64,000 nucleotides of DNA from an uncultured archaeon (GTDB lineage Archaea; Aenigmatarchaeota; Aenigmatarchaeia; QMZP01), in the NCBI GenBank assembly GCA_964555875.1, contig CAZKUD010000004.1, positions 3,580 to 67,579 of the forward strand. The letters are read 5' to 3'. Within the stretch, counting starts at the first letter, position 1. Each line of letters begins with the position of its first letter. Positions 1,590 through 63,100 of this stretch are shown one piece after another. The notes below the pieces were generated by a model. The model was not told the origin of the DNA, made no database searches, and saw nothing but the letters and a program-made list of their open reading frames with translations. Made by a program: the position numbers and the translations under genes.

Positions 1590-2224
1590 TATTTCAGCAC
1601 CTTCCCTGTCTTCATGTACCAGAGGTAGAGGTCGAGCTCGGCCAGCCTCAGGCCGGTCTTGATTCCCATCTCCTTAAGCTTGTCCTCGCACTCCAGGTAG
1701 AACCTCCTGTTCACGCTCTTGGGCACGCGCTCTATAAGGCCGTACTCCTTCATTATCCAGAGTATGTGCCTGTCGATTATGGCCACGTCCTTGTAGCCCA
1801 CGTTCCTGAGGAAGTGGCTGGACTCCTTCCAGCCCAGTCCCTTTATGTGCTCTATCAGCCACCTCCTGGCGCTTTTCGAGTTCCTGTCCCTTATCCTGTC
1901 CTTCACGTCAGCATGCTTCCTGGCAGCCAGTATGAACTTGGCCCTTGTGTTTGGGAACCTGTGGCCCAGGCCCTTCAGCCTGGCCGCCAGCCTCTCCTCG
2001 GAGTCTCCCAGGAAGCCCTCAGGACCTATAACTTCCTGTATCTTTATGCCCCTCTGGGCAGAGCCGTTGGCTGTCAGTATGCAGAAGCAGAGCTCAGAGA
2101 ACCATTCCGCGTTCCCTTTCTGTGACAGCTCCTCGAACTCCCACATCCTCTTGTCAACTGTCCTCTTGAGGCCGCTGTTCGCCAGCTCCTTCACCTTCTT
2201 GACCAGCTGGTCTGGCGTGTGCAT
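1589..2224 (-). CDS. ogg: N-glycosylase/DNA lyase, Ogg2-type 8-oxoguanine DNA glycosylase (HhH-GPD superfamily)
   Basis: Helix-hairpin-helix region LKGLGWKESSHFLRNVGY...DVAIIDRH typical of archaeal Ogg2. About 210 aa. Confidence 0.7.
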   Translation of the reverse strand: MHTPDQLVKKVKELANSGLKRTVDKRMWEFEELSQKGNAEWFSELCFCILTANGSAQRGIKIQEVIGPEGFLGDSEERLAARLKGLGHRFPNTRAKFILAARKHADVKDRIRDRNSKSARRWLIEHIKGLGWKESSHFLRNVGYKDVAIIDRHILWIMKEYGLIERVPKSVNRRFYLECEDKLKEMGIKTGLRLAELDLYLWYMKTGKVLK

Positions 2225-2263
2225 GCTTTTTATTAAAACTGGGGGTTAAATAAAGCATACGAT

Positions 2264-2338
2264 GGCCGCAGTGGTGTTAATGGTTAGCATGTGGGACTGT
2301 GGATCCCTTGGTCCGAGTTCGAGTCTCGGCTGCGGCCC
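2264..2338 (+). tRNA. tRNA-His (anticodon GUG) with G-1, no encoded CCA
   Basis: Acceptor GCCGCAG/CUGCGGC, extra 5' G opposite discriminator C, anticodon loop CUGUGGA, T-arm CCGAG-TTCGAGT-CTCGG. Confidence 0.8.
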
Positions 2339-2360
2339 TTCCTCTTTCTGAGAGAATGAA

Positions 2361-2560
2361 TGCGGGGGGAGAGATTTGAACTCTCGAAGGCGCTAAGCCA
2401 CAGGATGTCCTATCATCGTTCCTTCCGGAACTCGATACACTTAAGTGACCTTAAGTTTGGCAGCCTTGCTTGTTGCAAGCATAGCACCTGCCCCTTTGAC
2501 CATTCCCGAGCCTTCCCTTTGGCTGAAGCCTTTGGAAAGGCTTCTCGGGAACCCCCGCTT
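2361..2560 (-). tRNA. Intron-containing class II tRNA (Leu-like; a CUUAAGG heptamer would fit a UAA anticodon loop). Spans about 200 nt, so it must carry one or more introns, possibly one in the D-loop region.
   Basis: Minus strand reads 5' GCGGGGGTTCCCGAG ... GGCTTAGCGCC (variable arm) ... CGAGAGTTCAAATCTCTCCCCCCGCA 3'. Acceptor halves are perfectly complementary, the T-arm is GAGAG-TTCAAAT-CTCTC, and the 5' end closely resembles archaeal tRNA-Leu. Internal hairpins (GAAGCCTTTCCAAAGGCTTC, CACTTAAGTG) are consistent with intron bulge-helix-bulge structures. Confidence 0.45.
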
Positions 2561-2615
2561 ATAGAGAAATTGTCCTGCCTTGTTTAAAAGGTTCTTTCAG
2601 GCACTTGGAACGGTT

Positions 2616-2819
2616 TTACTTCTTCTCAGAGAGGGTGTCGACCCTCTGCTCGAGCAGGGCCAGGCTGCCGGAGATGTCCTCCAGCATTATGGCCAACTTG
2701 TCCACCCAGGCGGCCACTATCTTCACGTCAAGGCTGTCCGCCTTGTCGTTTATCTCCTGCCTGAGCGCCCCCAGGTCGCTCTTGAACTCCTCGAATGATG
2801 TTATTGCCATAAGCATCAC
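2616..2819 (-). CDS. Small coiled-coil protein (67 aa), start overlaps trpS stop
   Basis: ORF directly downstream of trpS with a 4-nt overlap. Heptad-like sequence. No family recognised. Confidence 0.4.
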   Translation of the reverse strand: MMLMAITSFEEFKSDLGALRQEINDKADSLDVKIVAAWVDKLAIMLEDISGSLALLEQRVDTLSEKK

Positions 2820-4603
2820 TTGATGAACTTGCCCACCAGCTTCTTGGCCTTCTCCCTCTTCTTCTGGTGCTCTGTAAGGAACCTTGTCAGCAGTTCAGCG
2901 CACTCCTTCTTGCACTCCCCGCAAAGGCGCTTACCTTTCTTGCACTCCTCCCTCACCTTCTGGAGGTGCTTGTCATCCCTTGCCAGGTGGTAGGCGAACA
3001 TGTCGTAGACCGTGCACACGTCAGGGTCTGCGCCCCTCTTCCTCTGCTCGTCAGCGTTGCCCCTCCCGCCCGTGAAGGCGGCTGATAGCTTCTTGGCCGC
3101 CGCCTTCGGGGGGTCGGAAAGGGCTATATGGGAGCCCGGGTCAGAGCTTGCCATCTTGCCTCCCTTGAGGCCTTTCATGAACATGTGGTAAGTGGACGAG
3201 GGCGGGATGAAGCCGAACTCGTCCTTCACCCTGTTGGCTATGTCCCTCGTGAGCCTGAGGTGGGGGTCCTGGTCTATACCCACAGGCACCACCACAGGCG
3301 CCTTCTTCCCTTCGAACTCGGGAAGCATGGGGTGCAGGATGTCAGCCACCTGCGTCATTATGGAGGTTATCTTGCCGGGCGAAAGGTCTCCATATATGGA
3401 CTTCATCTCGTTCATGGTGGGCTTCTTGGACACTATGCCAATCAGCCTGTAGTAGGCGTTCGCCTTCCTGTGGTCGGAGTGCCTGTCGCTCTGGAAGTAG
3501 AAGTCCACGTTCTCCGGCTTCAGGCCGAGGGCTATGTAGTTGAGCAGGTACTCGTTTATCGCGACCTCCTTCAGCTCCTTGAATGTGCATTTCCTCATGT
3601 TATAGGCCTCTATGTCGGCCACGCAGAGGTATACCCTGGCCCCTATGCTCTGGTAATAGACTATCTGGTCAGCCAGCATCTTGTGGCCGAAATGGAACTT
3701 GCCTGAGGGCATCAGGCCCGTCATCATTGACCAGGGCTTGCCTGACTTCACGGCGTCAGCTATGTTCTTGAAGTCCCTGTGCCCGAAAACTATCCCCCTC
3801 TTCATGAGCGGGTGGGGATCAGGCAGCCTGTTAGACATCGGCTTGAACTTGCTTATGCCAAATTCTTCTAACAGCTTGTCGTAGTCCCTTATCTTCTGCT
3901 CCCCCCAGGGGTTTATCCTCTCTGCTGAAACGATGCCTGTCTTGACCTCCTTCCCGAGTATGTGGAGCTCGGTCTCGCCTGGCCTGCCCTTTCCCATGGC
4001 AGCCATCCTGGCGGCGTCCTTCAGGCAGTTCTTTATCCTGGCGTCCTTCACCCCCGGGACGTAGAATGCGAAGTATGCACAGTTCTTCGTCTTCCCTGTT
4101 ACTTTTGTCCTCAGCGACTGGCCCTCAAGGTACGTCCCTATCACGCCGCCTCTGTCTTTCACCACAACATCGCCCTGCTCGAGCGTGACCGTGTCGCCGG
4201 CCATGTTGGTGAACTCGTCCCCCTCCATGGCCTGGTCAACAGTGAGCGCGCCGTCCATCCTGTCGCTGTCCATCACGCCCATCAGCACCAGGTGCTTGAG
4301 CTCTGCCAGCAGCATGGCGTCCACCATCGGGGACAGGGTAGGTATGCCCTTTCCCTTGAGTACGGCCTTCACTCCCTCCAGTATGGGGAAGGGCCTGTCA
4401 TGGCGGCCGAAGAACTTGTCGTAGGCCTTTATGATGTCCACCTTCTCCCAGTTCCTGTACTCCTTCTTGACTATCCTCTCCACAGTGCTCCTCTCGTCCC
4501 TGAGCTCCCTGGACCCTGTGTTGACTGAGCCCTTCACCTCGACCAGGCCCAGACGCATGGTCGGATAGCGCTCCTTTATCCTCTGGGAAAACTGAACTTC
4601 CAT
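2816..4603 (-). CDS. trpS: Tryptophanyl-tRNA synthetase with an N-terminal B3/4-like domain (PheRS-beta editing-domain fold) of about 220 aa
   Basis: Class I HIGH motif GKFHFGHKML. KMSKS variant GGKMASSD typical of archaeal/eukaryotic TrpRS. N-terminal region LSPMVDAMLLAELKHLVLMGVMDSDRMDGALTV...GDEFTNMAGDTVTL resembles B3/4 domain consensus. 595 aa against about 380 aa for plain TrpRS. Confidence 0.8.
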   Translation of the reverse strand: MEVQFSQRIKERYPTMRLGLVEVKGSVNTGSRELRDERSTVERIVKKEYRNWEKVDIIKAYDKFFGRHDRPFPILEGVKAVLKGKGIPTLSPMVDAMLLAELKHLVLMGVMDSDRMDGALTVDQAMEGDEFTNMAGDTVTLEQGDVVVKDRGGVIGTYLEGQSLRTKVTGKTKNCAYFAFYVPGVKDARIKNCLKDAARMAAMGKGRPGETELHILGKEVKTGIVSAERINPWGEQKIRDYDKLLEEFGISKFKPMSNRLPDPHPLMKRGIVFGHRDFKNIADAVKSGKPWSMMTGLMPSGKFHFGHKMLADQIVYYQSIGARVYLCVADIEAYNMRKCTFKELKEVAINEYLLNYIALGLKPENVDFYFQSDRHSDHRKANAYYRLIGIVSKKPTMNEMKSIYGDLSPGKITSIMTQVADILHPMLPEFEGKKAPVVVPVGIDQDPHLRLTRDIANRVKDEFGFIPPSSTYHMFMKGLKGGKMASSDPGSHIALSDPPKAAAKKLSAAFTGGRGNADEQRKRGADPDVCTVYDMFAYHLARDDKHLQKVREECKKGKRLCGECKKECAELLTRFLTEHQKKREKAKKLVGKFIK

Positions 4604-21423: not shown

Positions 21424-21528
21424 AACCCTATTTACCGGCCTCCTTTTATAAGCTTATTTCAGGGGGCTCTGGCTATTGCCGAGCCTGACGGCTGGGGAGT
21501 GAAAAATAAGAACTAGTTTCTTTGGTAC

Positions 21529-21573
21529 AGTAGCTTTCTTGCAGAAGCGGCAGCTCTCGTAAAGAAAGCTACT
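21529..21573 (-). ncRNA. Conserved 3'-end hairpin element, copy A (12-bp stem, 21-nt loop GCAGAAGCGGCAGCTCTCGTA on + strand)
   Basis: Perfect inverted repeat AGTAGCTTTCTT/AAGAAAGCTACT. Abuts the stop codon of the 21573..21821(-) gene. Loop shares AGAAGCG-NN-AGCTCT with copies B and C while the stems differ (compensatory). A T-tract follows on the minus strand. Confidence 0.45.
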
Positions 21574-21821
21574 CACTTCTTCTTCTCTTTCTTGAGCTCC
21601 TTCTGGGCCCTGAGCTCGTCCATCTCGAGCCAGACAACGAACAGGCCGACGATTATCAGGAAGATGGGTATGACGCCGGTGAGAACCACTATGAAGTTCT
21701 TCAGCCAGTCGATGCCGAAGGTGCCCAGCACTCCCATGATTGGGATGACCGAATCAACGAAGAGCCCCAAGCCGATTATTATCAGTATGAGCCCGATTAT
21801 TATCTTCAGCGCTGGATGCAT
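21573..21821 (-). CDS. Small membrane protein with Lys-rich C-terminus (82 aa)
   Basis: Two or three predicted TM helices. Confidence 0.5.
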   Translation of the reverse strand: MHPALKIIIGLILIIIGLGLFVDSVIPIMGVLGTFGIDWLKNFIVVLTGVIPIFLIIVGLFVVWLEMDELRAQKELKKEKKK

Positions 21822-46927: not shown

Positions 46928-47436
46928 TGGGAGACATATACCTATACACGGGCAAGGGGGCAGGCAAGACCACCAACGCCCTGGGGCTTGCCCTGAGGAT
47001 GGCAGGCCACAACAAGACCACGGTGATAATACAGTTCCTCAAGTGGTGGAAGAAGACAGGGGAATACAGGATGAGGAACCGGCTTAAAGGATACCACATC
47101 TACCAGTTCGGGAGGAGGGGCTGGAAAGGGCTGGAGAACCTGGGCCCCAAGGACAGGGAGCTGTGCGAGAGGGGTCTGGAGAAGGCCAGGAAGGAGATTA
47201 AGAGGAGGAGGCCCCACCTGCTGGTGCTGGACGAGCTGAACCTGGCGGTGCACTGCGGGATGCTCGACGTGAAAGAGGTCCTGGAATTCCTGGACTCTGT
47301 CCCGAAGAGGACGGACGTGGTGATAACCGGCAGGCATGCGCCCAAGGAACTGGTGAGAAGGGCGGAATACGTGAACGAGATAGTGATGGTCAAGATGCCC
47401 AAGAAGCCTGCCAGCAAGGCAGGCATACAGTATTAA
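46927..47436 (+). CDS. cobO: Cob(I)alamin/cob(I)yrinic acid a,c-diamide adenosyltransferase (CobA/CobO/BtuR)
   Basis: P-loop TGKGAGKTT, VIIQFLK, VLDELN. Start overlaps nrdJ stop (TGATG). Confidence 0.85.
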   Translation: MGDIYLYTGKGAGKTTNALGLALRMAGHNKTTVIIQFLKWWKKTGEYRMRNRLKGYHIYQFGRRGWKGLENLGPKDRELCERGLEKARKEIKRRRPHLLVLDELNLAVHCGMLDVKEVLEFLDSVPKRTDVVITGRHAPKELVRRAEYVNEIVMVKMPKKPASKAGIQY

Positions 47437-48219: not shown

Positions 48220-48411
48220 ATGGGCGGAGGAACCAAGGCATTCGGGAAGCAGAACAAGAAGACGCACATAATCTGCAGGAGGTGCGGCAAGCACACGTAC
48301 CATGTGAGGGACCGGAGGTGCGCAGCCTGCGGTTTCGGGGCATCCTCCAAGCTCAAGCAGTACACCTGGCAGAACAAGGCCAACAAGGGCAAGTGCAACA
48401 GGCTGAAGTGA
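48220..48411 (+). CDS. rpl37e: 50S ribosomal protein L37e
   Basis: GTKAFGKQNKKTHIICRRCG...CAACG zinc ribbon. Confidence 0.9.
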   Translation: MGGGTKAFGKQNKKTHIICRRCGKHTYHVRDRRCAACGFGASSKLKQYTWQNKANKGKCNRLK

Positions 48412-48425
48412 TCTGGTTTTGGATA

Positions 48426-48463
48426 GAACCCTTTGTAGAAGCGTAAGCTCTCGTAAAAGGTTC
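48426..48463. ncRNA. Conserved 3'-end hairpin element, copy B (stem GAACCCTTTG/TAAAAGGTTC with one bulge, loop TAGAAGCGTAAGCTCTCG)
   Basis: Between convergent rpl37e and tbp. Same loop core as copies A and C with a different stem sequence. Confidence 0.45.
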
Positions 48464-48499
48464 TGCAACAGGCTGAAGCGAATCTTTTCAGAAGAAACC

Positions 48500-49126
48500 C
48501 TAACACTTCTCAGGCTTTATCTTTATGCCTATGGACTCCAGCTTCTCCTTCAGCTTCCTCAGCGCAGCGTGCACGTCTGACAGGGTGTGTGCTCCTGTGC
48601 AGATTATCTTGCCTGAGCTGAAGAGCAGGAATGCCACCCTGGGCTCGCTTATCCTGTAGACCAGGCCAGGGAACTGCTCAGGCTCATATTCAGCGTTCTC
48701 CAGGCTGAAGGTTATCTCTTCCAGGTTCAGCTGGGCGTTTATCTTGGAGCTGGCCACTATGTTCTCTATCTTGACGTCGTATTTCCTCGGCATGGATATG
48801 CCCACAGAGCGTATCCTCTTGACCACCTTGTCTATTGCAACGTTCGCCAGCTCTATGTTCTTGGCGCCTGTGCACACTATCTTGCCGCTAGAGAATATCA
48901 GGGCAGCCGCCCTGGGCTCCTTGGTCCTGTAGACCAGGCCAGGGAACTGCTCAGGTTCATATTCAGCGTTCTCTATCTCCCCCACCAGCTTGTTGAGGGG
49001 AATCTTCTTGCCCAAGGCCACGAAAGCGACGACGTTCTCCACCTTGACGTGGAATTTCCCGCTTCCCCCTCCCTTGGAGGCCCTTTTTGGGGCAGCCTTT
49101 GCCTTAGTATTGGTTGGTTTTGCCAT
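48500..49126 (-). CDS. tbp: TATA-box binding protein
   Basis: Two direct repeats ENAEYEPEQFPGLVYR...SGKI(V/I)CTGA. Confidence 0.9.
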   Translation of the reverse strand: MAKPTNTKAKAAPKRASKGGGSGKFHVKVENVVAFVALGKKIPLNKLVGEIENAEYEPEQFPGLVYRTKEPRAAALIFSSGKIVCTGAKNIELANVAIDKVVKRIRSVGISMPRKYDVKIENIVASSKINAQLNLEEITFSLENAEYEPEQFPGLVYRISEPRVAFLLFSSGKIICTGAHTLSDVHAALRKLKEKLESIGIKIKPEKC

Positions 49127-51112: not shown

Positions 51113-51562
51113 TTACTTCACCAGCAGCTTGGCCCTGCTGAGGTTCCACTTCCAGTCAACTGGCATGAGTCCCCTGCCCTTGTAGTACTTGGCAAGGCGC
51201 CTTATCTTGGACTCGGTGATTTCGAGGCCCCTCTTGGAGGTATAGTCCCTCTTGTTCTTGGAGAGGTGCACCTCAAGGCCCGCAGCCTTCTTGATGAGGT
51301 TGACCATGTCCTCAGGAAGCTCTGGGTAGGCCTTGTTCTTCCTCATGACATCGGCTATCTTGAGCTTGCTCATCCTCACGGAAGGGATGCCGTACTGGTC
51401 CCTCAGGACCAGCCCTATCTGGGCTGACTGCATGCCTTCCTTGGCGTGCTTGAGTATTATGCCCTCTATCTCCTTGGGCTTGTACTTCATCCAGGGGGCC
51501 ACCTTCTGCATGGGTTTCTTTGACCTTGACTTGCCCCGCTTTCTGGAATACATCCTTGCCAT
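51113..51562 (-). CDS. rps15: 30S ribosomal protein S15P/S13e
   Basis: MARMYSRKRGKSRS N-terminus and conserved S15 core. Confidence 0.9.
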   Translation of the reverse strand: MARMYSRKRGKSRSKKPMQKVAPWMKYKPKEIEGIILKHAKEGMQSAQIGLVLRDQYGIPSVRMSKLKIADVMRKNKAYPELPEDMVNLIKKAAGLEVHLSKNKRDYTSKRGLEITESKIRRLAKYYKGRGLMPVDWKWNLSRAKLLVK

Positions 51563-51611
51563 AGTATCTTTTTTGCACTCAGGGTTTTTAAAAGCATCAC
51601 GGGGTTTGCTC

Positions 51612-51648
51612 CCCCGCTTTGGAGAAGGCGGAAGCCTCTAAAGCGGGG
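51612..51648 (-). ncRNA. Conserved 3'-end hairpin element, copy C (9-bp stem CCCCGCTTT/AAAGCGGGG, loop GGAGAAGGCGGAAGCCTCT)
   Basis: Directly abuts the thrC stop (51649). Loop resembles the A/B core (AGAAG(G)CG-NN-AGC(C)TCT). Confidence 0.4.
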
Positions 51649-52908
51649 TCAAGGTTTAAAAGCCTTGAGGAAACGCGGACCGGTGCTCTTCACCTCTATG
51701 GGCTTGCCCCTGACGCCTGTCTTGGGCGTCTTCAGGCCGTGGCCTGTAACCATGCAGACCACATTGCCTTTGAATCTCTTTTTGGACTTCAGTATGCCTG
51801 CCAGGGCGACAGCCCCTGCAGGCTCGGCGAACAGGCCTTCCTTCTGGGCCAGCATCTCCCTGCACCTGAGGATATCCTGGTCTGTGACCGTTATGCACGT
51901 GCCTCCCGACTCCTTGATGGCTGCGAGCGCCCTCTTGCCGTCGAGGGGGTCGCCGCATTCAATTGCCACAGCTACTGTATGGCTGCACCTCTTCCTGGGC
52001 CTTCCTGTGAAGTCCTGGAAGACAGGGGAGCACCTGGAGGACTGTATGCCTGAGATTATTGGGAGCTTCTTTATCCAGCCCAGGGTGTAGAACTCCTGGA
52101 ACGCCTTCCAGGTGGCAGAAATAAGGGTTCCGTTGCCCACAGGGCACACCACATGGTCCACATGGGGCAACTGGTCAGCTATCTCGAAGCCCACCGACTT
52201 GGTCCCTTCCCTCCTCCAGAGGTAGTCGCCCAGCATGTACAGGCTCTTCCTCCTGGTGAGCCGCTCGACTGCCCCGGCCGCCTCAGCATAATTGCCCCTT
52301 ATGCGGTAGAGCCTGGCCCCGTAGGCCAGTATCTGCTCCATCTTGACTAAGGCCGTATCAGAGGGCGAAACTATGGTGCATTTCAGGCCTGACATGGCCG
52401 AGTACGCTGAAACAGAGGCGCCCATGTTGCCTGTGGACGCGCAAACAACGTGCCTGGCCTTCTGCTCCAGGGCCCTGGCCACCTCCACAGAGGAGCCCCT
52501 GTCCTTGAAGGAGCCTGTCGGGTTCTGCGCCTCGTACTTGAACCAGAGCCTGAACGGCAGCCTGGACTCCTTCTCCACCCTCTTGGAGCGCACGAGAGGC
52601 GTGCCGCCTTCCTGTATGGAGACCAGCTTCCTGACAGGGAAGAACTCCGCGTACCGGGAATGGTTGAAGGGTCGGGACAGGACGTCCTTTCTCTTAAGCC
52701 TGGACAGCTTCCTGTAGTCCATCATCACTTCAAGGCTGCCCCCGCAGGGGCACCTGGCGTTGGGGTACTTCAGGGGATAGGCCTTCCCGCACTCTGAACA
52801 GCGTATGCTTTTCGCGTACATCCATTTATAATTGGGCTCGGACCAAATTAAACTATGGCTATATCTGAGGCCATGGTGCTTTTGCCCATGGTTTTCCAGT
52901 ACATACAA
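51649..52908 (-). CDS. thrC: Threonine synthase with N-terminal zinc ribbon (alternative start at 52821)
   Basis: PLP lysine FKDRG. N-terminal CSECGK...CPCGG. The start as drawn overlaps a divergent gene by 54 nt. Confidence 0.85.
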   Translation of the reverse strand: MYVLENHGQKHHGLRYSHSLIWSEPNYKWMYAKSIRCSECGKAYPLKYPNARCPCGGSLEVMMDYRKLSRLKRKDVLSRPFNHSRYAEFFPVRKLVSIQEGGTPLVRSKRVEKESRLPFRLWFKYEAQNPTGSFKDRGSSVEVARALEQKARHVVCASTGNMGASVSAYSAMSGLKCTIVSPSDTALVKMEQILAYGARLYRIRGNYAEAAGAVERLTRRKSLYMLGDYLWRREGTKSVGFEIADQLPHVDHVVCPVGNGTLISATWKAFQEFYTLGWIKKLPIISGIQSSRCSPVFQDFTGRPRKRCSHTVAVAIECGDPLDGKRALAAIKESGGTCITVTDQDILRCREMLAQKEGLFAEPAGAVALAGILKSKKRFKGNVVCMVTGHGLKTPKTGVRGKPIEVKSTGPRFLKAFKP

Positions 52909-53776: not shown

Positions 53777-54184
53777 TCATCCCTTTCTGATTTCCCGTAT
53801 GATCCTGCTAGTGCTGTATCCAGGAAGCCTTTTCTTTATCCTGACAACCTTGCATTTTATGCCCATTGCCTTCAGGCGTTTTCTTATTTCATTATCGTCC
53901 TGGTCGAAGCCCAAGGCTATCACGTCTGGTTTCTCCTCCCTTACCGCCTTCATCATGTCTGACGGGTGGCCCACCCTCACCTTGTCGACGAACCCCAGGC
54001 TGCCCACCATATCCTTCCTGTCCTTTGCAGAGAACGAGAGCCTGCCGCTCTTTCTGCCGGCTGTCCTGTCATGGGCCACCACCACCACCAGGCTGGTGCC
54101 CAGCCTCCTGGCGGCCTTCAGGAAGAATATGTGCCCCGGATGGAGCAGGGAGAACACGCCGCCGACAAGGACCTTCCTTCCCAT
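53777..54184 (-). CDS. ribL: Cytidylyltransferase-family nucleotidyltransferase, archaeal FAD synthase RibL-like
   Basis: GGVFSLLHPGHI (HxGH) motif, 135 aa. Similar to archaeal RibL/PPAT-type enzymes. Confidence 0.6.
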   Translation of the reverse strand: MGRKVLVGGVFSLLHPGHIFFLKAARRLGTSLVVVVAHDRTAGRKSGRLSFSAKDRKDMVGSLGFVDKVRVGHPSDMMKAVREEKPDVIALGFDQDDNEIRKRLKAMGIKCKVVRIKKRLPGYSTSRIIREIRKG

Positions 54185-57100
54185 CAGCCCCTCCTTACCG
54201 TGAGCGCGTATCCGGAACCGGTCTTGTTGCTCTCCAGGATAAGCTTGTGGGTCCCTGGGTTGAGTATCAGGTCGCTCTGCACGTCTATGTTGCCGTAGCC
54301 CAGCAGGCTCTTGACCGTGCTGTAAAGTCCCAGCCCGTAGCCGAAGCTCGGGGAAGGCTTCTCCAGGAACTGCTGGGACTTTATCAGGCCCATCTTCTCC
54401 TCTATCGCCCTCCAGTCACCCTTCGTGAAGACCAGGAAGGCCAGCGGGTTGTCCTTGCCCAGGGCGACTGTCATGGTGTGGGAGGAGGGGGTCTTGTCGT
54501 ATCTCAGGAACTCGGGATTCTGGTAGGCGAAGACCAGGCCGTAAAGGACCCCGCTCCCGTAGCTGGCGAGGTAATAGCTGGGCGGGCTGTTCCAGACAGT
54601 CCCCCACTGGCTGGCTGGCTTGGCGCCTGCCCCGGGCACGTAAACCATGTTGCTGGTGTTGTTGATGGTCAGGCTTATGGTCAGGTTGCCCACGGCCGCG
54701 CCTGACACTGTCAGGGTGTCGTTCTCTGACTTGCTGTCATACCCTCCCCTATGGCATGTGACGTTCCAGCCGTATGTCCCGTGGCTGCTGAATGACCTGC
54801 TGAAGGTGTAAAGGGCTGTGGGTATGCTGTAGGACATCTGGTACTGCCCGTCGCTGAAGCTTATGTTGCAGCTGCTGCTCGTTAGCGCGCTGCCGCCTGA
54901 GGTGTAGTTGGCGTAGAAGCCGACAGACTGCCCGACCCTTATGGTCTGCCCGCCGCCCGCAGGGTCTCCGCTGTCCCATATGCTCAGTAAGGACGCCTGG
55001 GTGTCGCATATGTTGTCTATCCCGTCAGCGTCATCGTCCTGCCCTGTGTTAACCTGGTTCGGGCACATGTCGCACACCATGTTCGGGTCCCCGTAGAGGC
55101 TCGTGTTCACGCCCTCTGTCCAGCCGTCCTGGTCGAAGTCTGCCTTGGCGCAGGTCCAGCCCGTCCCCCTGCTGGTCAGGCTGTCGCAGACATAGAAGAC
55201 CTTCTTGTAAGAGCTCACCTGGTCGCCGTCCTCGTCCGTCACGTTCACGTAGGCCCTGTACATGCCATCAGAGTTGGGGGCGGGCACGGTCCCGTTGCAC
55301 TCCACGGTCGAGCCCGAGCCCCCTGTCTTCGTCAGGGTCCCTGACCAGACAACCGAGCCAGAGGAGTCCTCTATGTAGGCGTTGCATGCAGCGGACTGGA
55401 AGTTTCCGCTGTCCGCTGTCCTGAAGCTGGCTCCTATCAGCGCGCCGTCAGTGCTGCGGTAGAATGGCTCTGTCATGTTTATGGACGCTGCTGTCGGGAC
55501 AGGCATGACGTTTATCCCTATCGTCCTGCTCCCCCCATTGGTGCCCGTGTTGTCTGCGCCGTCCGTTGCGTTGGCGGAGAGCTGGTAGCTCCCGTCATCG
55601 TCAGTGTAGGTGGTGGCGTACAGGCAGTTCCCGTCGCTGGACTGCACGACCGTCCCGTCAAGGTCGAAGGCGCACCTGCATATGCCTGACGGGTCGCTGG
55701 ACGGTATCGCCCTGTACCTTATGGTGCCCCCGTATGGTATGTTCACGAAGTTCGAGGAGTTTATCGGCCCGACCTCTACTGAGGAGACGGTCGGCGGCGT
55801 GTTCTCATAGACTGTCGGGCTCCTGGTGCCTGCCCCATTGTCCGGGGAGCCGTCCGAAAGCGAGTTGGTTATGGAGATGGAGTATGTCTTTGCCTGTGGC
55901 GAGGACACCCCTCCACAGTTCAGGGTGACATCAAACCCGTTCAGCGGGTTCCCTGCTCCCACCTGGCCCGGGTCATGGTCTATCCTTCCGACCTGGTCCT
56001 GGGTGGACACGTACCTGAGCTTGTTGGCGTTGGTGCCGCTCATCGTGCAGTTGGAAGCGTTGTACGGGAAGTACCTGGTCGGGTCTGTGGCGTCGCCCAG
56101 GATTATGGAGATCGAATTGTAGCTGCCTGAGCCCACCACCCTTACCGTGTAGTTGGTGAAGACATAGTGCCTCTGCAGGTGTCCCACGGAAACCGTTGTC
56201 CCGCCTACGGCTGACGGGCTTGTCGTGTAAGGTATGGTGGTGCAGCCCACAGTCGACCAGCCCTGGCTCGGGCACGCGCCCACGCCGTAGCAGTCGCTGT
56301 CGGCGCAGTCATAGTAGCCGTCGGCGTCATTGTCCAGGCCGTCCGTGCAGCTGGTTTCGGTCCCGTATTCGCACCATCCCACTCCGTTGCAGTCCACGTC
56401 AGCGCAGTCTGCCCCTCCCTGCGCGTCATTGTCGAAGCCGTCGAAGCAGCTGGTTTCGGTCCCGTATTCGCATGCCTCCCCGTTGGCCGTGGAGCCTATC
56501 TCCCCTGAGCAGTTTATGTCCGCGCAGTCTGTTATTCCTGTCGGCATCATGTGGTCATTGTCCAGGCCGTCCGAGCAGGATGACCAGGTGTAGTTCTCCT
56601 CTCCCGGGCAGGGGCCGCATGAGCCGAACTTCCTGTTGCAGTCAGGGTCGGTGCAGTCAGTGCCGCCGTTGGGCCAGCCCTGGGAGTTGTCCCCGTCGTC
56701 ATCATAGTTGTTGTTGCAGAACTGGTAGTGCTGGGCGAGGTTGAACTCGTATGGGTAGCAGACCTCGTTCGGGTTGGCCGGGTTGGCCACCCCCAGGCAG
56801 TCCACGTCAGCGCAGTCTATGTTGGCCGCAGGACCTGTGTATGTCATGGAGGGGTTGTCCAGGTCATTGTCTATGTTGTCGAAGCACTGGCTGTCATTAA
56901 CCTGCCCGTACCTGTTGTGCCTCTCATTGGTCGGGCACGTGTCGGTCCCGTTCGTCTGGCCCCTGCAGTCATAGTCCCTGCAGTCCGAGCCGCCGGTCTG
57001 GCTGCAGCTCCTGCTGTTGGAGCCGTCGTCATAGTCATTGTTTATGCCGTCGAAGCACCAGCCAGCCAAATTGCTCTCGTTGGACGGGCAGGGGTCTGAA

Positions 57101-60100
57101 GTGGACGTGCCTCCCTTCTGCCAGCAGACTGTCGGGTCGCAGCAGTCTATGTAGTCGGTGTAGCCCGTGCTGTACGGGGTGGATGCGTCCTGGTCATTGT
57201 CGAACAGGTCTGCGCATGCTGTCCTCCAGGGGTAGAATGACTCATGGGTGGCGTTGCTGAAGCCAGCCCCCTCCTGGTACTCGCACAGGTTGGTCATGTC
57301 CTGGTAGTCGCCGGGCTTCAGGTCGCAGTCGGCGTCCGCGCAGTCGTACCCGTCCTGGGCGTCGTTGTTGAAGCAGTCGTAGCAGGTGAGCTCCAGGCCG
57401 TACTCGCAATAGGCGTTCCCTGAGGTGCAGTTTGTGCCGCCTATGAACCCGTCGCAGTCCTGGTCAGCGCAGTTGGGGTAGTAGTCCAGGTCGTTGTCGG
57501 GCACGTATCCGCTCACTGCCGGGTCAGAGCATGGCGCGGATATTGTCCCTGACATCTCCTCTGTCTCGTTCCAGTTGGTGGGTGCCGAGGAGCTTACTAT
57601 TATGGGCACGTCGTAGATTATCAGGTTGGAGCCGTACTGAGTTATGGAGACCGTTATGTTGTGCTCGCCAGAAGACCATCCGCTGGTCAGGTTGACGTAC
57701 ATGACCATGTCTATGTCGCCTGTGTAGCCTGATGCGTCCTCCGCCTTGTAGGTCACGTTCTGGCCGCCTGACTGGGCTATCTGGTCGCTTGTGAGGTTAT
57801 GAGAGCCCGGTGCAGGGTACTTGCCGTACGAAACGAATCCGTCATCGAGGTCTGTCAGGGCGAAGGCTATCGGCTGTCCGGTGGAGTAGCTGCCCCCGTC
57901 GAACCTGAACTTCAGCGTGCCGCCGTTCTGGACGTACCTGGTGTAATAGTATGTCGTGGAGTGCCCGCCCACTGTCTTGGTCTCCCAGCATATGCCGTTC
58001 GAGCATGTCCCCCCGAACGGGTCGTCGACTGGCGTATGGTTGGCGCAGGAGTAGGTTATGCCTCCGCAGTACTGGTCACCGCAGTCCGACAGGACGTTCC
58101 CGTCATTGTCCTGGCCGTCATGGCACCAGCCCTCTATGTTGACGCCCCTGCTCATTGCCACCGCGAAGGCTACGTCACCGGAGTAGTCGCACCTGTAGGT
58201 GTTGTTGAAGAACACCTTGTCGAACTGGAGGAAGCAGTCGAGCGCCCTGTAGGCGTCGTCGCCTATGTCGTCGAACCTGTTCCAGGTGTTCCCGTGGACG
58301 AATATCTTCTTGCCCAGCCAGGGCTCCCTCCCGTAGTCTGTAGCGTTGGTGTACAGGAGCCCCCTCCCTGAATTGTACAGGGAGCAATTGTGCACCCACC
58401 AGGGAGAGGTCTTGTTGTAGGAGTCCGAGAAGCTCATGTTGTGGTTAAGGTATTCCTGGCCGTTGCTCACGCTGCTGCCAAGCGTCTTGTTCAGGTAAAG
58501 CATGCTGCCGTTGGACATCTCTATCTCGCACTCGAGTATGCTGCCCGAAGAGGCGCTGAAGTTTTGGAATGTTATGTTGAAGTCGAACTTGTGCGTGCCC
58601 GGTATGGTCGCATTATAGGGCTCGTAAACGCCCTCCGGGAAGCTTATGTTGAGCCAGGCCACCACAGTCGTCAGGTTGGCTGGGTACGGGCCCAGGTCGT
58701 TGACGAACCCTGTCACGTTGGCCCCGTTGGTTGCGTTGTAGGGATACTGTGAGCCGTAGTCCCCGAAACCGTCGCCGTCAGTGTCGAATATCTGCAGGGT
58801 GCTGAGGTCGTCCCACGTGTTGCCCTCGTGTTGGTAGCCCTGGGGCTTGGATGTGTTTGTCCTGTAGAACATGTTGCCTGAAACTGAGCCAGCATGGTAG
58901 CCAATGCTTCCGGTGAAATTGTTGGAGTAGAGCACGTTGCCGACCGAGTTGTCTGTCAGGTTTGCCCCTATCTGGTTTTCCAGGAATGTGTTGTTGCTGA
59001 TGGTGTTGTTTTCAGCGCTGTCCAGGTGTATTCCTATCTGGCTGCTGTCGCGCACGGTGTTGAGGCATACTGAGTTGTTGTCTGCTGAATCCAGCAGTAT
59101 GCCAACAGGGTTCCTTTCCAAGGCGTTGCCGGAAACCGTGATGTTTTCAGCGCTGTCCAGGTAGATGCCGGACTGGCTGCTGTCGCGCACGGTGTTGAGC
59201 CGGATTGAGTTGAAAATTGAGTTGTAGTCATAGATGCCTATGTAATTGTAATCCGCTGTGTTGTTGTACACAGTAATGTTCTCGGAAGTGTCCAGGTAGA
59301 CGCCCTGGGCGTTGGAGCTTACATTATTCTGTTCCAGCGTGCCGTTGTTTGACAGCTCGACAATAACGCCTGAATTGCTGTTGTTGTACAGGGTGTTCTC
59401 CCACACATGGCTGGAGTTGCTGTCATGCAGCATGATGGCATCAGTGAAGTTGAGTATGGTGCAGTTGAAGATGGAAACGTTCTCCTGGCCTGTCACGTTT
59501 ATGGCTATCCCGGAGCCGTCTCCCCTCAGGATGTAGTCGGCGCAGTCGAACGTGATGTTGCTGGCGTTTATTATGAAGCAGTCCCCTGTCACGTTCAGGT
59601 CCTGTATCATGGTGGTGTCGTTGTTTATGAAGCCGCAGCTCAGGTCGCAGACGTTGTCTATCCCGTCAGCGTCGTCGTCCCTTCCCGTGTTCACCTGGCC
59701 CGGGCACATGTCGCACACGAAACCCTGCCCGTACATGCTTATGGTGACGCCCTCTGTCCAGCCGTCCTGGTCGAAGTCTGCCTTGGCGCAGGTCCAGCCC
59801 GTCCCATTGCTGGCCAGGCTGTCGCAGACATAGAATACCCTGGATTCGGAGCTCACCTGGTCGCCGTCCTCGTCCGTTATGTTTACGTAGACCGTGTACA
59901 GCATGTCGATGTTCGGCACTGGTATGGTCCCGTTGCATTCAGCTGCCCCTGAGCCCAGGCTGGTCTTCGTCAGGGTGCCGGAGGAATATACACTGCCCAT
60001 GGCGTCCTGGATGTAATAGTTGCAGGTCCCCGGGAAGCTCCCGTCGCTGGAGGTCTGGAAGCTGGCGCCGAAGCCCATGTCCTCTGTGCTGTAGAAGAAG

Positions 60101-63100
60101 GGCTCTGTCTTGTTTATATTGGTGCTGGTAGAAACGGGCATGACGTTTATCTGGAACGTCCTGCTGCCTCCGTAGGAGCCCAGGTTGTTGGCCCTGTCCC
60201 TGGACCTGGCCCGTACGGTGTAGACGCCGTCGTCCTGGGTGTATGTCGTGGAGTAAGTGCAGTCGCCGTCAGTGTTCGGGAAGGAGGAGCTGTCCAGGTC
60301 GAACTGGCACTGGCATATGCCCGAAGGGTCATTGCTCGCGTTTGCCCTGTACCTTACGGTGCCCCCGTAGGGTATGTTTATCCCGTCAGTGGCATTGACC
60401 GGGCCCGCCTCTATCCTGTGGACTGAAGGCGCCACGTTCTCGTATATGGTGTAGCTGTGGGTCTTGCTGCCTGATTCCGTCCCGCTGCTCAGCTGGTTGC
60501 TTATGGTCACCGGGTAGGATTCTGACTGCGCGCTCTCGTTCCCGCCGCATGTCAGGGATATCGAGAAGCCGTTCAGTGGGGTGGACTGGGAGACGTTTAT
60601 GTCCTGTATGGTTCCCAGGTCGTCACCGCTGGTCACCCACTGGAGGCTGTCTGTCGGGTCTATAAGGGTGCAGTTGGTGGCATTGAAGGGGAAGGGGTCA
60701 GCAGGCGGGGAGGTCTTGCCTATTATCATGGCTATCGCCCAGTAAGTGCCTGTTCCGGTTATGTTTATCGTGAAGTTGTCATAGACATGCAGCCTGTACA
60801 GGTGGTTGGTGTATATGGTGCTGGAGCCCACCCGGGAGTTGCCTGTCCAGGCGGGCACTGTCAGGCACCCCACAGTGGACCAGAGCTTGGGGGAGCATGT
60901 GCCCACTCCATAGCAGTCAGTATCCACACAGTCAATGTAGCCGTCGGCATCATTGTCCAAATCGTCTGAGCAGGTGGTTTCGGTTCCGTGCTCGCACCAT
61001 CCCACGCCGTTGCAGTCGCTGTCGGCGCAGTCAGCCCCTCCCTGCGCATCGTTGTCGAAGCCGTCGAAGCAGCTGGTTTCGGTCCCGTATTCGCATCTCT
61101 CCCCGTTGGCCGTGGAGCCTATCTCCCCTGAGCAGTTTATGTCAGCGCAGTCCTGGCCATCCGTGAAGGAATCCGCAGTGTTGTCATAGTCATCGTCCAG
61201 GCCGTTGGCGCATGAGTCCCAGGTCACGTTCTCCTCCTCCGGGCAGGGGCCGCATCCGTTGAACTGCTGGTAGCAGTCAGAGTCTCCGCAGTCAGTGCCC
61301 CCTGGCCATCCCGCATGGGCGTCCCCGTCATTGTCGAAGCTGTCAGCGCAGAACTGGTAGTGCTGGGCGAGGTTGAACTCGTAAGGATAGCAGACTTGAT
61401 TCGGGTTGGCCGGGTTGGCGACCCCGAGGCAGTCCAGGTCAGCGCAGTCTATGTTGGCCGCTGGCGCGTTGTATGTCATGGACGGGTTGTCCAGGTCGTT
61501 GTCTATGCCGTCGAAGCACTGGGAGGCGTTGAACTGGCCTGTCAGGTTGTAGGCCTCATGGACAGGGCAGGTGTGCGTGGTGTTGGAGACGCCCCTGCAG
61601 TCATAGTCCCTGCAGTCGGCCCCTGTGTTCACGTTGCAGTCGGCGTTGTTGGAGCCGTCGTCATAGTCGTTGTCTATGCCGTCATGGCACCAGCTGCCGA
61701 CCGTGTTGTTGGCGGTATTATTCTCCTGTGCCGGGCAGGGGAAGTTGGAGGTGTCCGTGCTGGTCCCGCCCTTCTGCCAGCAGACGGTGGTGTCGCAGCA
61801 GTCTATGTTGAGCAGCGGGCCGTACGGGGAGGCTGCGTCCTGGTCATTGTCGAACGTGTCCTGGCAGGCGGTCTTCCAGGGGTAGAATGATTCGTGCGTG
61901 GCGTTGCTGAAGCCGGCCCCCTCCTGGTACTCGCAGAGGTTGGTCATGTCCTGGTAGTCCCCGGGCTTCAGGTCGCATTCCGCCTCCGCGCAGTCGTACC
62001 CGTCCTCTGCGTCGTTGTTGAAGCAGTCATAGCATGTGAGCTCCAGCCCGTACTCGCAGTAGGCGTCTCCCCCCGTGCAGTCCGAGCCTCCCACCTGCAG
62101 GTCGCAGTCCTGGTCAGCGCAGTTAGAATAGTAGTCCATGTCGTTGTCCCAGGAGTCAGCGCAGGGGTCGTCTATAACGCCCGCCATCGGGTCGCTCTCG
62201 TTCCAGGCCGTTGGGGAGCTGTCGTTTATGTAGAGGGGGATGTTCTCTATCAGCAGGCTGTCGCCGTACTGCGTTATGGTCAGCTCGAAGGTGGTCTGGC
62301 CTTCCCCGTAGCTGCTCAGGTTGGTGTACAGGACCATGTCTATGTCGCCGGAATAGCTGCTCTGCTCCCAGGCCTTGCATGTTATCCCGCTGGTTGACGT
62401 CTGGGTCAGGTTGTGGGAGCCCGGGCCCGCGTACTTGTCGCAGCCTGTCCAGTTGCCTGACTGGAGGCTGGTTATGGCGAACTCCATTATCCTCCCCTGG
62501 GCGTCGTTGTGGTTGCCTGCATCGAACCTGACCTTCAGGGACTCTGTAGAGCTGTTCCTGACGTACTGGTTGAAGTAATATGTCACAGGGTACCCGCCGA
62601 CAGTGGCTGTCTCGCTGCAGACGCCGTTGCTGCAGACGGCGGTCCCGGAGTAGTTGAAGGCAGGGTCAGGGAGCGACGGGTGGCTGAGGCAGGAGTACGT
62701 TATGCCGCTGCAGTCGTCGTCAGAGCAGTCGGTTGCCGCATCCGTGTCGTCGTCCTGGCCGTTATGGCACCAGCCCTCCACCTGGGCTCCCTGGGACATC
62801 TTGACCGAGAACGTCACGTCTCCCGCCCAGTCGCACCTCCTGGTGTTGTTGAAGTATACCTTGTCGAAGCCCTGGTAGCACGACTGGGCCTTGTAGCCGT
62901 CGTCAGTCTGGGTGTCGAACTTGGTCCAGAAGTTCCCGTGGACGAATATGTTCTTCCGGAGCGGGCTGCCGTAGTCGGATGAGTTGGTGTAAATGGCTGA
63001 ACCTCCCTCGCTGGCCCTCAGGGAGCAGTTGTAGACGTACCATGGCTGGTCCCTGTCTATGTAGCTGCTGTCCCAGTCATTGGCAGTCAGGGTGTAGCTC

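Follow-up and report, generated by a model that had tools for sequence, protein, structure and literature searches.

A probable mobile hairpin element behind protein genes and within stable-RNA genes of Aenigmatarchaeota

RESULTS

Three hairpins in one archaeal window form a family

Three short hairpins, here called copies A, B and C, stand at the 3' ends of protein genes in a 64-kb stretch of DNA from an uncultured archaeon of the Aenigmatarchaeota (assembly GCA_964555875.1, contig CAZKUD010000004.1, 155 kb; this whole stretch of 64,000 nucleotides [nt] is the window to which coordinates refer). An initial annotation had grouped the hairpins by a common loop and taken them for a selected RNA structure, with candidate roles in the 3' untranslated region (UTR) or termination, in RNA stability, or in the processing of small RNAs. 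We find that they are members of one family, and the evidence assembled below makes it likely that they are three insertions of a lineage-specific, nonautonomous mobile element of about 50 to 75 nt whose core is needed in cis. The closest named relatives of the TBP and PorB proteins encoded in the window belong to Aenigmatarchaeota, and identical contigs occur in sediment metagenomes.

The hairpins and their neighbors lie where they had been placed (Table 1). Copy A follows an open reading frame (ORF) for an 82-amino-acid (82-aa) membrane protein, and the A that ends its TGA is the first base of the stem; copy C begins directly after the TGA of a PALP/ThrC-like ORF; copy B lies between the convergent genes rpl37e and tbp. 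The arms of copy A (21562-21573 on the 5' side, 21529-21540 on the 3' side) form 12 perfect base pairs around an interior of 21 nt, and those of copy C (51612-51620 and 51640-51648) form 9, or 13 at 92% when inner pairs are counted. Perfect complementarity had been claimed for all three stems; copy B departs from it by a C.A mismatch on the plus strand, which on the minus strand becomes the one G.U pair of a continuous 10-bp stem.

The common core, too, is exact in only two of the three. The pattern AGAAGCGNNAGCTCT occurs exactly twice in the window, in copies A and B, which are identical over AGAAGCG-NN-AGCTCTCGTAAA and have an exact core of 21 nt in common; by our own estimate, about 0.002 exact occurrences of the 13-base pattern would be expected by chance on both strands of 64 kb (128 kb). 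Copy C fails to match this pattern even when 2 mismatches are allowed, lacks the four bases CGTA (UACG in sense), and has one additional G-C pair in its inner helix, yet it was recovered by a covariance model, R1, trained on 14 copies that included B and excluded A and C. On the window, the R1 score was 55.8 bits for B, 44.0 bits for A (E = 3.2e-8) and 22.5 bits for C (E = 0.0056), and no further match had an E value of <0.29. Copies A, B and C are one family, with C a diverged subtype. All three matches fall on the minus strand, and the core had been written on the plus strand; we take minus as the sense strand because it is the sense strand of the 82-aa ORF, of tbp and of the ThrC-like gene.

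A conserved interior inside freely varying stems

Across the family, an outer stem of 7 to 13 bp, free in sequence and with a 5' arm that ends in U's, encloses an asymmetric internal loop (5'-UACG/3'-NC), an inner helix (AGA-GC/GC-(U)-UCU) and a variable UNNC cap, which accommodates a 37-nt insertion in one copy (L093 990-1072; L-numbers label loci fetched from the genome collection and from metagenomes). An A-rich tail of 10 to 36 nt, often containing C[C/G]AAAAC, completes an element of about 50 to 75 nt; tails have the motif C[C/G]A3-7 in 21 of 41 cases, upstream controls in 3 of 41. What had been described as a conserved loop is indeed conserved, but it is really an internal loop, a covarying inner helix and a variable cap.

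Covariation is extensive. Of the 10 outer pairs in an alignment of 14 sequences, 8 vary on both sides, and pairing holds in 94% of cells, compared with 42 to 54% in controls whose 3' partners were slid; the alignment of all 43 copies described below gives two-sided variation at 12 of 15 pairs and pairing in 92.9% of cells, compared with 43 to 59%. The inner helix has compensatory changes of its own, from A-U to G-C (five times), G-C to U-A (twice) and C-G to U-A (twice), along with inserted G-C or U-A pairs in divergent copies, and the genomes that host the internal loop and inner helix range from 29% to 64% GC. The earlier judgment that these are selected, conserved structures rather than plain terminators is borne out by outer-stem covariation throughout the family and by the lack of a U-tract directly after the hairpins.

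Outer stems recur as types: AAGCCUUU, CACCGCU(C)UUU, GAACCCUUU and UAGCUUUUCU. An origin of the stems by local inverted duplication of the target was rejected, as the same types recur across unrelated contexts and genomes. A C.C mismatch also recurs at one and the same place in the outer stem (5' ..ACC(C)UUUU with AAAA(G)CGU..), at loci that include L043 3049-3095, L018 5897-5943, L093 351-397 and 990-1072, L099 1175-1221 and L101 713-759; at such loci, the 5' arm often has a perfect complement in a distal repeat of the 3' arm, which suggests two alternative conformations.

Orientation relative to the host is strict. The copies within rRNA and tRNA genes, at least 14 of them, are all in sense, with the UACGAGAG strand as the host sense strand. 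In 11 copies, a long sense ORF (85 to 586 codons) ends beside the hairpin, with its stop between -4 and +3 nt from the foot; an antisense ORF ends at the foot of one copy only (L043). It is on this orientation that the assignment of the sense strand rests.

Several identities for the structure were tried and set aside. By eye, none of K-turn/K-loop, box C/D, H/ACA, hammerhead, archaeal SECIS (selenocysteine insertion sequence) or loop-E/bulged-G motifs fits; sequence inspection places N-C in the nonbulged strand where a K-turn bound by L7Ae would need G-A, in either orientation. The start of the sense core, UACGAGAG (window 21541-21561 and 48435-48456, minus strand), equals 8 nt of the universally conserved sarcin-ricin loop of 23S rRNA (AGUACGAGAGGACC); the remainder of that motif is missing, and the identity is probably a coincidence. 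A small ORF across the hairpin was also considered, and its peptide likeness, FYES.RF.K, merely mirrors the nucleotide conservation.

The family appears confined to one archaeal lineage

A 17-base core pattern scanned over one genome per prokaryotic species gave 82 loci, 19 of them in archaeal metagenome-assembled genomes (MAGs) assigned to Aenigmatarchaeota or to 'uncultured archaeon'. In nearly all of these 19, the core is enclosed by complementary arms that are unrelated in sequence; the bacterial matches have no comparable arms, and the weak 6- to 8-bp pairings in three of them were judged to be chance. A scan of metagenomes, together with searches of the fetched loci by covariance model, brought the total to 43 distinct copies with covarying structure, in Aenigmatarchaeota, archaeal MAGs and metagenome contigs, a result that refutes plain palindromes or chance as an account of the likeness. 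The source habitats are hypersaline and hydrothermal sediments. Viral contigs held a single chance match, within a coding region and with no stem. At gathering thresholds, Rfam matched only a tRNA-His in the whole window, and around copy A with E values up to 10 its best score was 18 bits against a threshold of 65. A literature search on the core sequence and on introns of DPANN archaea and Aenigmarchaeota returned no description of the family, which appears to be undescribed so far.

Near-identical copies occupy nonhomologous loci. A copy with the stem type and tail of copy A (L060/L095/L100) follows a different gene, an ORF of 113 aa that lies upstream of one of 168 aa, the latter taken by us to be Trm56-like; the stem type of copy B, GAACCCUUU, returns in 16S rRNA inserts of L093; and the subtype of copy C, GAGGCUUCCGCCUUCU, is found again at L115 1666-1715 and also in L085, where it occupies an insert that follows GGTTCGAA of a tRNA-Gln-like gene and its inner stem carries compensatory changes. 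The element also forms tandem arrays (L045/L094 and L089/L101) with periods of 75 to 111 nt, in which the repeat unit is the hairpin plus a spacer of 39 to 70 nt. One array runs over L045 5040-5210 (= L094 6040-6200) and another lies around position 5870 of L089/L101, their periods being about 111 and 75 nt. One array adjoins an intron-containing tRNA-Leu(GAG) gene on the opposite strand, and the L089 array enters an assembly gap. Genes beside the L094 array are housekeeping genes only, with none transposase-like, and no ORF-bearing autonomous version or core split by a long insert was found in the fetched loci.

Insertion footprints at copies B and C

Copies B and C bear the marks of insertion. 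At copy B, the hairpin and its 10-nt tail stand between the two copies of a 21-nt duplication, AGATTCGCTTCAGCCTGTTGCA and AGATCACTTCAGCCTGTTGCA, with 17/18 identity and a score of 32 that none of 300 shuffles reached. A relative (L127/L128) with the same gene order (S15, PIN/KH ATPase, TBP, L37e, LSM, S8e, CobA) provides the empty site: the tbp-rpl37e spacer in L127 is 36 nt long and holds a single copy of CTATTTCAGCCTGTTGCA. At copy C, the window reads ...GGCTTTTAAACCTTGA, the 37-nt hairpin, the 16-nt tail, and then GCTTTTAAAAACCCTGA and GTGCAAAAAAGATACTATG, with a duplication of about 17 nt (p about 0.01). The corresponding positions 1-30 of L128 read TTTAAACCTTGA joined to CTGCAAAAAAGATACTATG, with no element.

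Only 16 nt separate the ThrC-like stop from the rps15 start in L128, and the last codons contain the TATA-like box, an extreme overlap of signals in these genomes. The right duplication of copy C presumably now supplies the rps15 promoter.

Two loci elsewhere have comparable footprints, a 16-nt exact duplication in L106 that takes in the initial 12 nt of a tRNA-like sequence and a 17-nt duplication in L043 (14/17 identity). In B, C, L043 and L106 the geometry is the same: the left duplication adjoins the 5' hairpin foot, and the right one comes after the tail.

Copy A is missing in syntenic relatives whose PorB proteins are 93% and 80% identical to that of the window; an unrelated GC-rich hairpin stands there, with the same stop and the same T-rich tract. 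A comparison of L130 9871-10000 and L131 3862-4000 with window 21424-21572 finds a different GC-rich hairpin in each relative, which points to turnover of 3' hairpins at this locus. Likeness of copy A to the A-like copies of L060/L095 stops at the tail, and host sequence homologous to L131 restarts at CUAG. In about 52 kb of sequence from relatives (nonredundant among L130, L131, L125-L128, L005 and L008) we found no family copy. Presence among relatives is therefore patchy, which, together with the empty sites for B and C, is at odds with a host signal of particular genes.

The module also interrupts rRNA and tRNA genes

Family members occur inside stable-RNA genes. Three inserts in the 16S rRNA gene of L093 (349-422, 623-672 and 991-1094) carry the core and are missing from the 16S of L116, and further core-bearing copies lie at 16S position 39-85 and in the 23S gene. 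Flanked exactly by GTGCCGTG and AGGTGTCC, the insert at 623-672 (50 nt) has the fold of a relaxed bulge-helix-bulge (BHB) motif, with a UGU bulge, a 4- to 5-bp helix (GCCG/CGGU), an AAA bulge or loop, and the family hairpin as inner helix; relaxed BHBs are also present at L093 991-1094 and in L115. Splice junctions are predicted at the bulges, joining, for example, GUGCCGUG to AGGUGUCC. Longer inserts offer the 5' arm two alternative partners: the proximal 3' arm, with which it would form the hairpin, and a distal repeat beside the 3' splice site, with which it would form the BHB inner helix.

Among tRNA genes, tRNA-Glu(CUC) of L054 and L115 is detected by ARAGORN only after removal of a 71- or 76-nt T-loop insert with the element, and the tRNA-Gln-like gene of L085 carries the element in a D-loop insert. 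Copies also stand directly after tRNA 3' ends (L120 and L099). To judge from such folds and boundaries, the element is part of putatively excisable BHB-type inserts in some stable-RNA genes, and its predicted removal restores the gene.

The copies of the window are of another kind. They lie outside genes and interrupt none, and inspection and folds found no 4-nt flanking complementarity in the geometry that a BHB requires, two 3-nt bulges with 4 bp between them; because there is no BHB and no interrupted gene, they are not classed as introns.

Interruption of these loci goes beyond the inserts just described. The rRNA operon of L093, Aenigmatarchaeota-like (1-1340, partial 16S; 1963-3464, 23S), is heavily interrupted: besides the 39-85 copy, its 16S has six additional segments of 34 to 104 nt relative to the aligned part of the L116 16S. 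The segments at 179-227, 514-549 and 868-901 are without the family core, the first of them looking like a core-less family member. The tRNA-Gln-like gene of L085 (5105-5330), undetected by ARAGORN, is disrupted in its D-loop and T-loop by inserts and in its anticodon loop by a canonical intron; a complete reconstruction of this gene was attempted and given up, with no convincing 3' acceptor strand. L099 1100-1360 (minus strand), likewise undetected by ARAGORN, is a tRNA with a T-loop insert containing two family copies, and two more follow directly after its 3' end. A 5S rRNA gene also holds a copy (L068 26-110, L112 2084-2170), between CCCGTTCCCATA and TCGAACACGGAAGTTAAGCC.

Table 1. Family copies, duplications and adjoining genes in the 64-kb window
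Feature	Coordinates	Strand	Remarks
Copy A hairpin	21529..21573	-	Sense AGUAGCUUUCUU-UACGAGAGCUGCCGCUUCUGC-AAGAAAGCUACU
Copy A conserved core	21541..21561	-	Internal loop UACG/GC, inner helix AGAGC/GC(U)UCU, loop UGCC; exact pattern match
Copy A 3' tail	21517..21528	-	GUACCAAAGAAA
Host T-rich tract 3' of copy A	21499..21512	-	Sense UUCUUAUUUUUCAC; kept in relatives L130 and L131
82-aa membrane-protein ORF	21573..21821	-	TGA at 21573-21575; orthologues called in L130 and L131
Copy B hairpin	48425..48464	-	Sense AGAACCUUUU-ACGAGAGCUUACGCUUCUAC-AAAGGGUUCU; core 48435-48456
Copy B 3' tail	48415..48424	-	AUCCAAAACC, 10 nt
Copy B target-site duplication, left	48465..48485	-	AGAUUCGCUUCAGCCUGUUGC(A); relic of the rpl37e 3' end, stop codon now CGA
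Copy B target-site duplication, right	48394..48414	-	AGAUCACUUCAGCCUGUUGCA; functional last five codons and TGA of rpl37e (+ strand)
tbp	48500..49126	-	UAG stop 35 nt upstream (sense) of copy B
Copy C hairpin, variant subtype	51612..51648	-	Sense CCCCGCUUU-AGAGGCUUCCGCCUUCUCC-AAAGCGGGG; 37 nt
Copy C 3' tail	51596..51611	-	GAGCAAACCCCGUGAU, 16 nt
Copy C target-site duplication, left	51649..51664	-	GGCUUUUAAACCUUGA; last codons and TGA of PALP/ThrC-like ORF
Copy C target-site duplication, right	51579..51595	-	GCUUUUAAAAACCCUGA; TATA-like box upstream of rps15
PALP/ThrC-like ORF	51649..52908	-	
rps15	51113..51562	-	Downstream (sense) of copy C

Other features of the window

The T-rich tract behind copy A is the probable terminator of the 82-aa gene. 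Elsewhere in the window, a plain hairpin unrelated to the family, GCCUGCC-UUGCU-GGCAGGC, stands directly after the rps8e stop (47390-47432, minus strand). A near-palindromic TATA-like region, CCTTTTATAAGCTTATTTCAGG, lies upstream of porB (21438-21467) and is kept in L130 and L131, and a very long ORF of about 3260 aa occupies 54184-63966 (minus strand).

DISCUSSION

The hallmarks of a transposable insertion were found together in this family: a target duplication with an empty site (B and C), copies at nonhomologous places, and patchy presence. We therefore consider a small, nonautonomous mobile element the probable origin of all three window copies. The element enters DNA with a target-site duplication of 16 to 21 bp, as B, C, L043 and L106 show, and its insertions would persist only where they are harmless. 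The long duplication would wedge the element between overlapping signals, the left copy keeping the end and stop of one ORF and the right copy keeping the promoter of the next gene or the end of a convergent one. In a compact genome, a long duplication of this kind accounts for a hairpin directly behind a stop codon, and no role in translation or termination is needed. The conserved, covarying core would be the cis-acting part that is recognized by the machinery of mobilization or maintenance, probably as RNA; an RNA stage, or recognition as RNA, is suggested by the strict sense orientation. Once inserted, the window copies would be transcribed as 3'-UTR hairpins, copy A taking the place of an ancestral plain hairpin, and such hairpins may stabilize the 3' UTR, incidentally protecting 3' ends.

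Within this reading of the copies as insertions, we can offer only tentatively, and hold to be rather unlikely, the more specific proposal that the element is the first RNA-mediated retroposon of Archaea resembling a short interspersed nuclear element (SINE), its RNA with an A-rich tail being copied into staggered breaks to leave variable target duplications of 16 to 21 bp, and that this would also be a route by which BHB introns are gained. An insertion would then become a harmless 3'-UTR passenger behind a stop, or a spliceable intron of rRNA and tRNA genes where the duplicated or palindromic target lets a BHB form, and the UACG/NC internal loop with its inner helix would be a new RNA motif, either recognized by protein or catalytic.

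A mobile element is not the only way to account for such conservation. The initial annotation had proposed, among other roles, a cis-acting 3'-UTR element selected by the host, in which a protein would read the core and set mRNA 3' ends, stability or termination behind the stop. That structure is strongly conserved through compensatory changes agrees with this, as do the 11 copies that adjoin the stop of a long sense ORF, the relatives that have a different hairpin and a T-run at the A locus, where some hairpin seems to be favored, and the finding that copy C is the most stable structure 3' of a stop among 61 window ORFs evaluated. Nevertheless, B and C are recent insertions with duplications and empty sites, close relatives have the family only patchily, and copy B lies 35 nt away from the tbp stop. 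Only 3 genes of about 61 selected window ORFs, functionally unrelated to one another, have the hairpin, and hairpins after stops are no general feature of the window (median folding energy of -8.6 kcal/mol downstream of stops versus -12.65 for coding controls). A role in mRNA or at a stop codon would make no sense for the copies of the module that occupy inserts of rRNA and tRNA genes, tRNA trailers or tandem arrays, and adjacency to stops is accounted for by long duplications in a compact genome. A host signal tied to particular genes accordingly strikes us as improbable.

The same conservation could reflect a small functional RNA housed in introns, UTRs and trailers, released to act in trans, or a small self-cleaving ribozyme. 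Excised archaeal introns are often circularized and stable, and the intron of tRNA-Trp hosts a box C/D guide, a precedent for a hosted small RNA; here, an internal loop and inner helix kept across genomes of 29% to 64% GC, the strict sense orientation, and residence in introns predicted to be excised would all suit such a function. Yet there is no match to box C/D, H/ACA, K-turn, hammerhead, twister or Rfam families, self-complementary stems cannot serve as guides, the window copies have no BHB to release them, and the insertion signatures speak for spread at the level of DNA, so that we give this explanation little credence. Least of all can the copies be ordinary palindromic terminators or unrelated hairpins alike by chance. 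They do lie at gene 3' ends, and the nearest T5 tract follows copy A at a distance of 17 nt, but there is no U-tract after B or C, an exact 21-nt core common to A and B is hardly expected by chance (about 0.002), and 43 distinct related copies together with covariance-model E values of 3e-8 (A) and 0.006 (C) leave this account with almost no probability.

A number of observations sit uneasily with the mobile-element interpretation. Duplications were seen in only 4 or 5 of about 20 copies outside stable-RNA genes. Copy A has no target-site duplication and looks like the replacement of an older hairpin, which would also fit selection for some hairpin at that place; in its mRNA context, moreover, the minimum-free-energy fold of copy A favors an alternative pairing with the end of the ORF. 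No transposase, reverse transcriptase or other partner gene was found beside the copies or arrays (no reverse transcriptase gene was examined). The initial copies were retrieved by their exact core, which is invariant among them by construction, and only divergent copies found by the model inform on it. The strand bias in G.U versus A.C pairs is weak, at 11 versus 4 in an unbiased count and 14 versus 11 in the covariance-model alignment; an initial tally of 20 versus 3 came from a stem finder that favored G.U pairs, and the bias is not relied on here. Finally, known miniature elements and extragenic palindromes conserve their terminal arms or palindrome and leave the interior free, and this family has free arms and a conserved interior.

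If the copies are insertions, the family connects noncanonical tRNA introns, rRNA mini-introns and intergenic repeats behind protein genes, which have hitherto been treated separately. Clean insertion events with empty sites and long duplications offer footprints from which the spread of archaeal introns could be inferred, and the SINE-like proposal, if true, would show how BHB introns are gained. The window copies illustrate how a parasite can enter a maximally compact genome, the long duplication regenerating both the end of an ORF and the promoter or convergent end that overlaps it. There is also a practical side: the inserts help to explain missed or misannotated tRNA genes, and possibly rRNA genes, in DPANN MAGs, as ARAGORN detects none of the disrupted tRNAs, and the covariance model could serve to find and remove such inserts.

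Comparison with known systems

Archaeal BHB introns are like the family in several respects. Members interrupt 16S rRNA, tRNA-Glu (T-loop) and tRNA-Gln-like (D-loop) genes and also lie within 23S and 5S; some have BHB-like boundaries, and their removal restores the gene; and related sequences at differing positions and in differing genes imply intron transposition. 'Transposing' noncanonical tRNA introns have been described in Thermoproteales (Fujishima et al. 2010, via PMC4090602), by a mechanism that the account calls unknown, 16S rRNA mini-introns are known from archaea (PMC4496867), and several DPANN lineages are reported to have EndA variants with an L3 loop, associated with increased disruption of tRNA genes (PMC5829648). 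The family differs from these introns in occurring outside stable-RNA genes without a BHB, as in A, B and C, and in its covarying core, A-rich tail and duplications of 16 to 21 bp with empty sites, features that were not found in the intron-transposition papers retrieved.

Three other kinds of hairpin invite comparison. Miniature inverted-repeat transposable elements (MITEs) and repetitive extragenic palindromic (REP) sequences with their bacterial interspersed mosaic elements (BIMEs) are, like the family, small, noncoding, palindromic, multicopy, mostly in intergenic 3' regions and patchy among relatives, and target-site duplications are common to MITEs and the family. Here, however, the duplications are unusually long and variable in length and members occur in introns; a REP origin would call for a GTAG-type tetranucleotide and a conserved palindrome, but no tetranucleotide is conserved 5' of the foot and the arms vary. 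Intrinsic-terminator-like hairpins resemble the family in standing directly 3' of a stop, and copy A replaces a plain GC hairpin before a T-run; the family differs by the want of an immediate U-tract, by A-rich sense tails, and by a core that is common to unrelated genes and found also inside rRNA and tRNA. The attC sites of integrons likewise fold into hairpins in a strand-specific way, keep their structure and extrahelical bases while varying in sequence, and lie just after cassette ORFs, but they conserve the hairpin foot (R''/R' boxes) where the family conserves the apical part, and the family has no cassette arrays or integrase, its neighbors being core housekeeping genes.

To our knowledge, nothing SINE-like is known in archaea. 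The SINEs of eukaryotes, which spread by target-primed reverse transcription, nevertheless offer a parallel, for both have a structured 5' RNA domain, a variable A-rich 3' tail beside the right duplication, duplications of variable length (15 to 21 bp for the SINE type; 16, 17, about 17 and 21 nt here), sense orientation and a nonautonomous nature. With no reverse transcriptase, internal promoter or target nick consensus identified for the family, the likeness is only a lead.

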